Below, piece after piece: positions 37,085-37,285 of a stretch of DNA of 64,000 nucleotides. The translations under genes were made by a program, and so were the position numbers. Under the pieces are notes generated by a model. It made no database searches and was not told where the DNA came from. It was given only the letters and a program-made list of their open reading frames with translations. Position 1 is the stretch's first letter, and each line of letters begins with the position of its first letter. The DNA is from Escherichia coli. GTDB lineage: Bacteria > Pseudomonadota > Gammaproteobacteria > Enterobacterales > Enterobacteriaceae. The stretch lies in assembly GCF_013122565.1 (NCBI RefSeq), contig NZ_CP053258.1. The stretch is one strand, 5' to 3'.

Positions 37085-37285
37085 CCCGAGAGGGCTGGGG
37101 TGAGGCTTTTCCCTCACCCAAACCCTCTCCATGTGGAGAGGGGCAGCGCCGGATGCGGCGTAAACGCCTTATCCGGCCTACAAGAACGTGCAAATTCAAC
37201 AAATTGTGATGCATCCTGTAGGCCTGATAAGCGTAGCGCATCAGGCAATTAGCCCCACCTTCTCCATGTGGAGAGGGTGGGATTG
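37085..37285. repeat. REP/BIME cluster plus small GC-rich hairpins in the mtlA-mtlD intergenic region
   Basis: REP-like units (GCCGGATGCGGCGTAAACGCCTTATCCGGCCTACA; GTAGGCCTGATAAGCGTAGCGCATCAGGCA) flanked by two copies of the near-palindrome CTCTCCATGTGGAGAG and GGGTGAGG/CCTCACCC inverted repeats. Confidence 0.7.

Follow-up and report, generated by a model that had tools for sequence, protein, structure and literature searches.

The 229-bp spacer between mtlA and mtlD of Escherichia coli (37059-37287 of the window, i.e. the whole 64-kb stretch of DNA that was analysed; both flanking genes lie on the minus strand) is a composite of three layers: a conserved BoxC-like element, a BIME-1 and a duplicate hairpin. 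The BoxC-like element, a twin hairpin, was found at the mtlA-mtlD locus in all 66 Enterobacteriaceae species sampled, and this presence, together with its conservation at a fixed distance from mtlD, indicates that it is probably a functional RNA structure rather than junk. With a probability of roughly one half, the composite spacer would carry in this element a cis-acting RNA that sets the fate of both halves of the operon mRNA.

Anatomy of the mtlA-mtlD spacer

The transcribed strand of the spacer folds at -109 kcal/mol (z = -8.5), far more stably than shuffled sequences. An earlier sequence-only reading of this DNA had given the length of 229 bp, recognised REP-type units in the centre of the spacer and placed its structures inside the mtlADR transcript, all of which is borne out, with two REP/PU units lying between copies of a near-palindrome. 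Its description of the spacer as built entirely of palindromes was right about the palindromes but not about their extent, as neither the L linker (28 nt) nor the mtlD leader (29 nt) is palindromic. No repeat features are annotated at the spacer in the MG1655 RefSeq record. Similarly, an Rfam scan of the whole window (4,227 families) at gathering thresholds gave no matches, and the best result of a permissive scan was the REP-based naRNA4, below threshold, the rest being noise. The features are listed in Table 1.

Table 1. Coordinates of the mtlA-mtlD spacer features and of the lldD-trmL palindrome in the window; the blocks of the element are given 5' to 3' on the minus strand.
Feature	Position	Strand	Details
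mtlA	37288-39201	-	
Hairpin h1'	37254..37281	-	CCCACCCUCUCC-ACAU-GGAGAAGGUGGG; inverted repeat I4; 28 nt
Direct repeat copy 2	37257..37277	.	ACCTTCTCCATGTGGAGAGGG; 95% identical to copy 1
BIME-1 module (RIB/RIP-type)	37148..37250	-	PU arms are inverted repeats I3 and I5
Z1-type PU	37218-37246	-	part of BIME-1
L linker	about 37186-37213	-	part of BIME-1
IHF-consensus-like site	37194..37206	+	aTTCAAcaaaTTG; inside L linker
Y-type PU	37148-37181	-	part of BIME-1
Conserved BoxC-like element of the mtlADR transcript	37085..37142	-	inverted repeats I2 and I6; covariance model
Direct repeat copy 1	37122..37142	.	ACCCTCTCCATGTGGAGAGGG; family D1, spacing 135
C1	37142-37135	-	element block
H1 loop	37134-37131	-	element block
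G1	37130-37123	-	element block
Linker	37122-37120	-	element block
G2	37119-37112	-	element block
H2 loop	37111-37106	-	element block
C2	37105-37098	-	element block
Linker	37097-37095	-	element block
C3	37094-37088	-	element block; then GGG
mtlD leader with Shine-Dalgarno	37059..37087	-	GGGUAAAAACAUUGAUGAAGGUUAAUACU; length constant relative to element
mtlD	35910-37058	-	
35-bp palindrome	25197..25231	.	ctgtctcttgatcag-gagat-ctgatcaagagacag; replaces about 79 bp of the BoxC-pair interior (K-12 alignment)
lldD-trmL BoxC inverted pair	25172..25266	-	counterpart of K-12 TMECO 17+18; alignment to MG1655

The central module has the same PU-L-PU organisation as copies at livF-ugpB and fliC-fliA, where the flanks are unrelated, the PUs align base for base and the L linker is nearly identical. 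Each genome holds at least 40 module-like places, and every genome has one covering at least 80% of the query. Within the linker, aTTCAAcaaaTTG agrees at 12 of 13 positions with WATCAANNNNTTR, which we take to be the IHF consensus, and it is on this basis that the site is called a putative IHF site. With its inverted Y and Z1 PUs, conserved linker with an IHF-like site and occurrence as a single unit of a multi-copy kind, the stretch is, judged by its sequence, an ordinary catalogued BIME-1 as defined and classified in PMC3333891, which also describes an IHF site as frequent in the L linker of BIME-1. It shares with the described BIME-1 (Gilson/Bachellier; Boccard and Prentki 1993; Oppenheim et al. 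1993; PMC3333891) the two inverted PUs and the linker with an IHF-like site, and is likewise single, extragenic, inside an operon transcript and near-identical to other copies; nothing essential differs. The flanking hairpins were considered as outer motifs of the BIME and rejected, given that other BIME-1 copies have unrelated flanks. The sub-threshold naRNA4 match (Rfam RF02564, from REP325; PMC4550694) lies at 37122-37178 on the minus strand, where a REP/PU hairpin and neighbouring sequence are shared, and scores 39.9 bits against a gathering threshold of 59.5; the match is due to the PU, and the REP325 of naRNA4 is a six-unit cluster of BIME-2 type.

The BIME-1 is bracketed by two near-palindrome copies, as had been noticed, CTCTCCATGTGGAGAG at 37125-37140 and TTCTCCATGTGGAGAG at 37260-37275 (chance expectation 0.01), although the two are not identical, since the second differs by one mismatch. 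An inverted repeat GGGTGAGG/CCTCACCC had been described before each copy; it is present at the mtlD-proximal one, but the mtlA-proximal palindrome is merely extended by CCCACC/GGTGGG. Nor can the copies be treated as equivalents, one being part of an ancient conserved element and the other a recent partial duplicate. The latter, hairpin h1', is a partial duplicate of the first hairpin (H1) of the conserved element. It begins 7 nt past the mtlA stop codon, folds at -20.7 kcal/mol (z = -3.9) and is confined to E. coli and E. albertii among the species compared, being absent in O157:H7. Only 478 of 5,426 E. coli genomes have two identical copies of CTCTCCATGTGGAGAG, matching ACAT loops thus being a minority allele; the loop of the mtlD-proximal hairpin in K-12 is TCAC.

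Both near-palindromes sit inside 21-nt direct repeats 135 bp apart. The O157:H7 spacer of 94 bp is exactly the spacer without BIME-1 and h1', and as 229 - 135 = 94, recombination between the direct repeats accounts for this allele. The 94-bp allele was also considered as an ancestral "empty site", which is less likely than a deletion, as E. albertii already has the duplicated hairpin and PUs. The size difference equals the direct-repeat spacing and the allele seen is that of O157:H7, and we therefore infer that the 94-bp allele arose by deletion. Its lack of BIME-1 and h1' shows both to be dispensable. K-12 has the 229-bp spacer, and elsewhere in E. coli the spacer measures 161, 318 or 417 bp (417 bp in Nissle), for an overall range of 94 to 417 bp. 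The window strain and K-12 each have one BIME-1 unit at the locus, and other strains have 4 or 6 PUs joined by short linkers (of BIME-2 or an atypical type; six in Nissle), a half-deleted unit (SMN013SH2) or none. All of this polymorphism lies upstream of the conserved element and none inside it. Furthermore, the interval between the stop codon and H1 gathers REP and ERIC insertions in many genera.

Conservation and pairing of the twin hairpin

The conserved element can be drawn in two folds. In the first, two adjacent GC-rich hairpins form, H1 (C1:G1) and H2 (G2:C2); in the second, G1-linker-G2 pairs with C2-linker-C3 to give an 18-bp long hairpin. The mean fold energies, -34.8 kcal/mol for H1 and H2 and -33.4 kcal/mol for the long stem, are those of folds predicted to be nearly isoenergetic. 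RNAalifold predicts a further, hybrid fold.

A covariance model built from 18 other species finds the window element at 68 bits (E 3e-19) and scores 52-93 bits at element-bearing loci, with no match at 14 loci without the element, mostly of Pantoea and other Erwiniaceae. In 59 of the 66 species C3 ends 27-31 nt ahead of the mtlD ATG; the interval between the mtlA stop and G1, in contrast, spans 21 to 185 nt. Pairwise identity averages 0.943 in the stems and 0.429 in the H2 loop, compared with 0.924, 0.959 and 0.581 at mtlD codon positions 1, 2 and 3, so that the stems, about 94% identical against 58% at synonymous sites, are conserved at a level like that of codon positions 1 and 2. The AU-rich mtlD leader, which contains AAAAACAUU, has a mean pairwise identity of 78%. 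Within E. coli, the part from H2 through C3 to the leader is single-copy in 5,404 of 5,426 genomes and at least 99% identical in 5,317 of them. By these sequence comparisons the twin hairpin is ancient and strongly conserved, and the pattern of conservation is that of a structure under selection.

The pairing itself is also maintained. In the long stem, 91.6% of alignment cells are paired and 7 pairs have changed on both sides, a level reached by none of 500 shuffles and compared with 36-58% in slid controls. As the MAFFT alignments (A1, A3) misaligned the C1 arm owing to differing loop lengths, H1 was assessed by explicit hairpin detection and a model-fitted alignment, in which 98.2% of H1 and 93.4% of H2 is paired and 7 pairs have changed on both sides, in an alignment that leans towards the modelled structure. 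The cells of these counts are non-independent, the sequences being related, and with most stem positions invariant, much of the support is conservation rather than covariation. At linker pair 29-69, 37 sequences have U·G, 19 have C-G and 4 have U-A. When one linker position and the loop-closing pair are set aside, the sense strand shows 61 G·U cells compared with 4 A·C cells, and variation in H1 consists solely of C-to-U changes in C1. At linker position 31-67, an A·C or U·C mismatch is found in 51 of 60 sequences; since A·C reads as G·U on the other strand, this blurs the strand argument. Taken together, the kinds of substitution suggest selection on the transcribed strand.

Relation to BoxC and the lldD-trmL palindrome

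The motifs flanking the BIME-1 are not new and belong to a known repeat family, BoxC (PIT, TMECO). To our knowledge, this family has been catalogued in E. coli since the 1990s with no function assigned and local genomic instability as its sole reported property. The mtl element has in common with BoxC (Hoyne et al. 2000; PMC4666352) its block order and, very nearly, the sequence CCCTCTCC(C)-loop-(G)GGAGAGGG-TTW-GGGTGAGGG; like BoxC it is intergenic, and its layout resembles a sense-antisense pair whose outer blocks pair (cf. TMECO 1+2, 7+8, 10+11, 12+13). Its G1-N3-G2 fits the BoxC core GGGNGAGGG-N3-GGGNGAGGG with one mismatch, and in the 64 kb this core occurs at mtl and lldD-trmL only (3 sites against 0.02 expected). 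Neither promoter nor terminator activity was found for PIT/BoxC in earlier work cited in PMC4666352, where function of the family is described as not demonstrated.

The lldD-trmL core matches lie at 25177-25197 on the minus and 25240-25260 on the plus strand, and the pair is listed as TMECO 17+18 in Table 1 of the K-12 catalogue (Holder 2015, PMC4666352). The sequence-only reading saw the mtl motif echoed in the outer arms of this palindrome, which holds for the shared core but not for the right outer arm, where the window strain has GGGGGAGGG and not GGGTGAGGG. It also allowed that the motifs might be ordinary members of a catalogued class with no link between the two loci beyond chance G/C richness. 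This proved half correct: the PU-L-PU core is an ordinary BIME-1 and the flanking motifs are of a described family, but the link exceeds G/C richness, both loci having the BoxC/TMECO core. The motif CCCTCACCC, found exactly twice in the 64 kb (37111 and 25177), is weak evidence alone, as 2 of 100 shuffles also give two. The mtl covariance model scores lldD-trmL BoxC units at only 9 bits; the two loci thus share the G/C-run core rather than the full architecture. Between the arms lies the 35-bp palindrome, whose allele is present in 791 of 5,426 E. coli genomes and whose sequence recurs in E. coli 536 at the 3' end of a transposase gene of the IS4 family; by its sequence, it is a relic of an IS4-family insertion-sequence end. 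The BoxC pair at lldD-trmL is absent in other genera, where the spacer is 47-92 bp, and BoxC pairs downstream of mtlR occur at only about 4 of 66 loci.

The mtl element differs from BoxC in several ways. The E. coli copy is missing from the catalogue of 23 K-12 copies, its linkers are TTT/CTA with CAG and not TTA/CCG (hence not of A/B types), and its antisense half is reduced to C2-linker-C3 without a hairpin of its own. It can be described as a compact sense-antisense pair with a truncated second unit, a version that is single-copy in E. coli. The strict consensus CCCTCNCCC-N3-6-GGGNGAGGG-N3-GGGNGAGGG is matched by 24 of the 66 orthologues but not by the window and K-12 mtl copies, in which the first stem has 8 bp rather than 9, and the E. 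coli copy is thus a degenerate BoxC relative and not a catalogue member. Moreover, TMECO sites are reported to vary unusually between E. coli strains and to be instability hot spots (Holder 2015, PMC4666352), a behaviour that the mtl element, nearly unchanged across E. coli and found at one site in 66 species, does not share; the two other copies checked are lineage-specific. Gene conversion with other BoxC copies was considered as the cause of this conservation and is unlikely: in the same Enterobacter genomes, copies downstream of mtlR have the canonical TTA and CCG linkers and the mtl copy has CTA/CAG, which argues against homogenisation.

A proposed role on the operon mRNA and its alternatives

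Beyond anatomy, family assignments, conservation and pairing, which are matters of observation, a function can be proposed for the spacer. In its old layer, BoxC-type G/C blocks directly before the mtlD ribosome-binding region would fold on the mtlADR mRNA. The twin hairpin could then form a barrier to 3'-to-5' exonucleases, protecting mtlA, and could serve as a 5' hairpin, set a constant distance ahead of the mtlD start, that protects or positions the mtlD-mtlR part after cleavage in the leader. Later, in Escherichia only, BIME-1 would have been inserted between the mtlA stop and this layer, and a partial duplicate of H1 placed beyond the BIME would have created the 21-nt direct repeats, allowing exact 135-bp deletion by recombination.

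The long hairpin is followed by GGGUAAAAAC with no U tract, and the Shine-Dalgarno and mtlD ATG lie outside the hairpins, so no textbook mechanism is directly visible. Action at the RNA level is suggested by the conservation and substitution patterns, and a role in stability or processing by analogy. The sequence-only reading had proposed that the structures could influence processing or the differential expression of mtlA versus mtlD, which is plausible and agrees with the conservation. As in known stabilisers, the stem-loops are stable, evolutionarily maintained and contained within a polycistronic transcript. The malE-malF spacer, reportedly described by Newbury et al. in 1987, is the paradigm of intercistronic REP/stem-loop mRNA stabilisers. 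There too, a highly used upstream cistron is separated from the downstream cistrons by stable GC-rich hairpins that have no terminator tail; unlike those, the conserved mtl hairpins are non-REP and keep a constant distance to the downstream start codon, and their part in mRNA stability would be argued by analogy. Searches of one literature collection (mtl spacer, PIT elements, Term-seq) found no paper on the conserved element and located no expression, RNA-end or half-life data for the spacer, and the TIER-seq supplements mention neither mtlA nor mtlD.

A more specific version is tentative: the twin hairpin may be an ancient family-wide cis-regulatory RNA, possibly with two states (G1 paired with C1 or with C3), that tunes mtlD/mtlR relative to mtlA, and perhaps a domesticated copy or the progenitor of BoxC.

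It is unlikely that the hairpins act on translation rather than RNA decay, such that a hairpin no farther than about 15 nt from the mtlA stop hinders termination and lowers MtlA output, and the twin hairpin at -29 insulates mtlD initiation or provides a standby site for it. In about 52 of 66 species a GC-rich hairpin does start no more than 14 nt past the mtlA stop, supplied by various elements, the duplicate hairpin in E. coli restores this proximity after BIME insertion, and the spacing to the mtlD ATG is fixed. However, the first hairpin does not keep this distance from the stop in 14 species and lies about 19 nt away in Erwiniaceae, and the Shine-Dalgarno and ATG are outside the structure. 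Liang, Rudd and Deutscher reportedly found in 2015 that REPs near a stop codon hinder termination and lower output.

Action as DNA is quite unlikely. The element would form a cruciform, an intrastrand triplex (C1:G1 with G2 as third strand) or a protein site, affecting replication, supercoiling or recombination. The C-G-G block order is that of a published triplex motif whose isolated oligonucleotides form triplexes in vitro (PMC4666352), but G2 pairs with C2 and this pairing shows compensatory changes, which accounts for the conservation of G2 without invoking a triplex, and Holder et al. (PMC4666352) found no triplex in vivo and, for the duplex form, double-stranded DNA. The adjoining BIME-1 has a DNA-level putative IHF site, the conserved A·C at 31-67 is G·T on the other strand, and G·T is tolerated in single-stranded DNA hairpins, which leaves room for a DNA-level role. 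Against this stand the strongly one-sided wobbles (61 versus 4), the invariance of the mtl element where TMECO sites are reported as unusually variable between strains, and the fixed distance to the start codon, which points to mRNA.

Similarly improbable is that nothing here is locus-specific, the BIME and BoxC being selfish or neutral repeats and the BoxC-like copy persisting by stability or gene conversion. Both components come from multi-copy families, BoxC is without demonstrated function (PMC4666352), and the polymorphic E. coli spacer and the REP and ERIC insertions of many genera fit such an origin. Yet the polymorphism is wholly upstream of an element that occupies the same site in 66 of 66 species, in 59 of them 27-31 nt before the ATG, with stems as conserved as codon positions 1 and 2 against 43% in loops and 58% at synonymous sites, while the two other BoxC loci are lineage-specific and the Enterobacter linkers differ between copies in the same genomes.

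Attenuation of transcription between mtlA and mtlD, by an intrinsic terminator or a conditional Rho-loading site (C1, C2, C3), is very improbable: BIMEs are linked to transcription termination (PMC3333891), C-rich, G-poor blocks are single-stranded in one or other fold and the second hairpin of Erwiniaceae is followed by UUUCGUCAUUU, but a scan of 36900-37450 found no terminator-like site on either strand, PIT elements showed no terminator activity (PMC4666352), and strong termination would be harmful as a scan of the spacer found no promoter-like site from which mtlD/mtlR could be transcribed. An intrinsic terminator (hairpin plus U tract) and an internal mtlD promoter were dropped on the results of these scans.

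The mtl element runs counter to the reputation of BoxC for instability, being fixed at one site in every species sampled. Its compensatory and wobble-preserving changes on the transcribed strand make it a concrete, testable case for a role at the RNA level, for which natural alleles offer controls: O157:H7 without BIME, Nissle with six PUs and SMN013SH2 with a half-deleted unit. Should the finding prove wrong, what is left is a textbook BIME hot spot. As described here, a single spacer separates disposable repeat DNA from a constrained part, which is useful for engineering and annotation of the mtl operon. If the cis-regulatory reading is true, this would be the first BoxC/PIT/TMECO-type element with a biological function.

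Repeat families in the mtlA-mtlD spacer

The window strain is an E. coli other than K-12, with 2013C-3264 as its best match, and its mtlA-mtlD spacer has the 229 bp that the sequence-only reading gave it. That reading described the spacer as built entirely of nested palindromes. The palindromes are real: a repeat finder returned the arms of all of them and a 21-nt direct repeat at a spacing of 135 bp, CTCTCCATGTGGAGAG has one exact and one single-mismatch match where 0.01 is expected, and the transcript strand folds as RNA at -109 kcal/mol (z = -8.5). "Entirely" overstates the case, since the linker and leader are non-palindromic. 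The two bracketing copies of CTCTCCATGTGGAGAG are both present, the second differing from the first by one mismatch, and the GGGTGAGG/CCTCACCC repeats said to precede each copy precede only the mtlD-proximal one.

Features of the window and of fetched loci (L-numbers), with spacer parts in transcript order
Feature	Position	Strand	Composition
mtlA	37288-39201	-	
mtlD	35910-37058	-	
mtlR	35323-35910	-	
mtlA-mtlD spacer	37059-37287		
Part 1			mtlA stop codon + 6 nt
Part 2			28-nt hairpin CCCACCCUCUCC-ACAU-GGAGAAGGUGGG
Part 3			REP/PU
Part 4			linker, 28 nt, non-palindromic
Part 5			second REP/PU, inverted
Part 6			CCCUCUCC-ACAU-GGAGAGGG-UUU-GGGUGAGG-gaaaag-CCUCACCC-CAG-CCCUCUC-GGG
Part 7			AU-rich leader, 29 nt, with Shine-Dalgarno; mtlD ATG next
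BoxC-like twin hairpin	37085-37142	-	
lldD-trmL palindrome	25172-25266		
Palindrome inside it	25197-25231		35 bp, ctgtctcttgatcag-gagat-ctgatcaagagacag
trmL hairpin	~25119-25141	-	CUGCCCCC-gcacuaa-GGGGGCAG, directly 5' of trmL ATG
Further REP/PU sequences	29186; 47431-47512; 51314		
BoxC inverted pairs 3' of mtlR	L030 3650-3841; L032 3660-3771; L025 3760-3850; L049 3660-3745		canonical, TTA + CCG linkers

The middle of the spacer matches the published definition of BIME-1, namely a single unit of Y and Z1 REPs with a long conserved L linker that often holds an IHF site (PMC3333891), and is, judged by that match, an ordinary BIME-1; the REP-type units noticed earlier are both parts of this catalogued element. 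A 105-nt query of PU (REP palindromic unit), linker and PU finds at least 40 places in nearly all E. coli genomes and at least one place matching 80% or more of its length in every one. In genomes with a better match than the mtl copy, that match lies at another locus; two fetched examples, livF-ugpB and fliC-fliA, repeat the mtl module base for base from AATTGCCTGATGCG to CATCCGGC, linker CAATTTATTGAATTTGCAC included, and the flanks at the three loci are unrelated. The G/C-run hairpins flanking the mtl BIME-1 are, by sequence, outside the module. The mtl linker contains a candidate IHF site, aTTCAAcaaaTTG, one mismatch from the IHF consensus. Elsewhere in the window, the inverted REPs at 47431 and 47500, ~69 bp apart, look BIME-2-like.

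BoxC, also called PIT or TMECO, has the consensus CCCTCNCCC-N3-6-GGGNGAGGG-N3-GGGNGAGGG, and 23 copies are catalogued in K-12, where TMECO 17 and 18 (3,781,028-3,781,156) occupy the lldD-trmL spacer (Holder et al., 2015, PMC4666352). Its core, GGGNGAGGG-N3-GGGNGAGGG with up to two mismatches, occurs three times in the 64-kb window against 0.02 expected, twice in the lldD-trmL palindrome and once in the mtl spacer; the echo between these loci, already seen by eye, is therefore due to a shared repeat family, and G/C richness arising by chance does not account for it. The mtl element is absent from the K-12 list of 23 and, with a first stem of 8 bp where 9 are required, does not fit the strict consensus.

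At lldD-trmL itself, the 35-bp palindrome stands where K-12 has ~79 bp of the inner part of the BoxC pair, and it is found in 791 of 5,426 E. coli genomes. An IS4-family transposase gene of E. coli 536 ends, at its 3' side, in this sequence (L097, 2003-2036), which gives the palindrome the look of a solo insertion-sequence-end relic. The 3' arm of the nearby trmL hairpin overlaps the likely trmL Shine-Dalgarno, and the hairpin, which may be a translational control element, is kept in other genera (L088-L094) despite otherwise different lldD-trmL spacers.

Conservation of the mtlD-proximal element

The mtlD-proximal element consists of successive C- and G-run blocks, C1, G1, G2, C2 and C3, which can pair as two hairpins, H1 (C1:G1) and H2 (G2:C2), or as one long stem (G1-linker-G2 with C2-linker-C3). 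One genome per species was scanned with MtlD, giving 80 loci from which spacers were extracted. The element lies directly 5' of mtlD in 66/66 Enterobacteriaceae loci, in genera including Citrobacter, Salmonella, Klebsiella, Enterobacter, Kosakonia, Cedecea, Buttiauxella, Siccibacter and Mangrovibacter, with the shared layout C1-loop-G1-YTA-G2-loop-C2-CAG-C3-GGGUAAAAACAUUGAUGAAGG...AUG. With 18 of these species as its seed, a covariance model gives 68 bits to the window copy, itself outside the seed, and 52-93 bits to each of the 66 loci, and matches none of the remaining 14 (mostly Pantoea and other Erwiniaceae). Most of those 14 (L069-L085: Pantoea, Mixta and relatives) carry two unrelated tandem hairpins, GGGGCGGG...GCCCGCCC, of the form GGGGCGGG-nnn-GCCCGyCCC with compensatory changes between species, the second followed by UUUCGUCAUUU; these may represent a structural analogue that differs in sequence.

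Mean pairwise identity is 0.943 in the element stems and 0.429 in the H2 loop, compared with 0.924, 0.959 and 0.581 at mtlD codon positions 1, 2 and 3, so constraint on the stems equals that on protein-coding positions. C3 ends 27-31 nt from the mtlD ATG in 59/66 species, and the extracted spacers show no insertion between H2 and that ATG. From the mtlA stop to G1 the distance ranges from 21 to 185 nt, with lineage-specific REPs, ERIC elements or BIMEs between the stop and H1. This interval is an insertion hot spot across genera, with an ERIC/IRU-like insert of ~125 bp in Citrobacter werkmanii, C. youngae and RIT691 (L011, L014, L050) and, in Salmonella, Citrobacter, Klebsiella, Phytobacter and Cedecea, REP-like hairpins specific to each genus (L008-L017, L019, L029, L034, L046, L053).

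Such deep conservation is abnormal for BoxC by three controls. Genomes encoding a TrmL with 89-93% identity to the query lack the lldD-trmL pair; their spacers measure 47-92 bp and hold one short hairpin at most. BoxC pairs 3' of mtlR occur in ~4/66 loci, in Enterobacter only, showing that the BoxC A and B unit types are common to several genera and the sites they occupy are not. These mtlR-downstream copies have TTA and CCG linkers and the mtl copy of Enterobacter CTA/CAG, which argues against homogenisation of the mtl copy with the rest of the family. Beyond the three controls, TMECO sites are reported to be unusually variable between strains (Holder et al., 2015, PMC4666352), whereas the mtl element is invariant in E. 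coli.

Within E. coli, a 93-nt segment of H2, C3, leader and mtlD start occurs as a single copy in 5,404 of 5,426 genomes (at least 99% identity in 5,317). The spacer as a whole is 229 bp in the window strain and K-12, 318 bp with four PUs in strain PU-1, 417 bp with six PUs in Nissle, 161 bp without the 5' hairpin and one PU in SMN013SH2, and 94 bp with one hairpin and no PU in UTAK-4 and O157:H7 PV15-279; 229 minus 94 equals the 135-bp direct-repeat spacing. O157:H7 does without the BIME-1 and the duplicated hairpin, which makes both dispensable additions. The mtlD-proximal hairpin loop is TCAC in K-12 and ACAT in the window, and as the ACAT form occurs in only 478/5,426 genomes, "two copies of one near-palindrome" describes a minority allele.

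The mtlA-proximal hairpin repeats H1 with ~5 nt on either side, and E. albertii has it, with two wobble-compensated changes, alongside two PUs. The duplication probably dates from the BIME insertion in the Escherichia lineage or shortly afterwards; a later deletion between direct repeats would have given the O157:H7 allele, and conversion between the hairpin copies the window ACAT loop. In SMN013SH2 (L003, 260-420) a 68-bp deletion takes the mtlA-proximal hairpin, one PU and part of the L linker, leaving TC joined to AGGATGCATCAC directly 3' of the stop codon, a natural partial knock-out of the BIME. In the Nissle derivative EcN_Sk (L005, 1-162), the strain with the longest spacer, mtlR is annotated as an incomplete pseudogene.

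Pairing, strand and possible action

On an independent MAFFT alignment, 91.6% of long-stem cells are paired, compared with 36-58% when the partner is slid, both sides have changed in seven pairs, and none of 500 shuffles does as well. Linker pair 29-69 is U·G (37), C-G (19) or U-A (4), and the linkers are fully compensated in K. oxytoca (TTC/GAA) and Siccibacter (CCA/TGG). H1 and H2 are 98.2% and 93.4% paired, with seven double-change pairs, on a model-fitted alignment that leans towards the modelled structure; H1 has, in 54/60 sequences, an 8-10 bp stem and a loop of 3-5 nt whose sequence is free. G1 is common to H1 and the long stem, the folds are nearly isoenergetic (means -34.8 kcal/mol for H1+H2 and -33.4 for the long stem) and RNAalifold prefers a hybrid of them; the modelled folds could be either a switch or just an ensemble.

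Non-Watson-Crick cells, counted without one linker position and the loop-closing pair, comprise 61 G·U on the transcribed strand versus 4 A·C (G·U on the other strand), and H1 variation is all C-to-U in C1, which speaks for selection acting on the sense RNA. Against this, pair 31-67 is mismatched (A·C or U·C) in 51/60 sequences, and single-stranded DNA hairpins tolerate G·T; RNA-level selection is for these reasons likely, not proven.

The data thus show a conserved, paired, GC-rich twin hairpin inside the operon transcript, at a fixed distance 5' of the mtlD ribosome-binding site and with the mtlD Shine-Dalgarno outside the fold. It would act on the mRNA. Intercistronic REP and stem-loop mRNA stabilisers offer an analogue: the element could shield the mtlA segment by stopping 3' exonucleases, or, alternatively or additionally, serve as the 5' hairpin on a processed mtlD-mtlR segment. 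The leader AAAAACAUU, single-stranded and conserved, resembles the RNase E preference, described in PMC5222698, for a single-stranded segment with a uridine two nucleotides downstream of the cut, a likeness given no evidential weight here.

That the hairpins act on translation is a serious rival to this mRNA-processing role: a hairpin lies within 14 nt downstream of the mtlA stop in ~52/66 species. Less well supported are action at the DNA level, on which the wobble counts bear, and an attenuator, the promoter/terminator scan of the spacer having found neither terminator tail nor promoter at the element.

Rfam holds no family for the element, and a literature search returned no paper on it, although an earlier description is possible in older mtl operon papers beyond that search's reach. 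To summarize, the spacer is a real structure made from already known repeat families, and most of its first description is ordinary. Interest is raised by the mtlD-proximal BoxC-like element, which is kept in every Enterobacteriaceae species sampled and looks to be selected at the RNA level.
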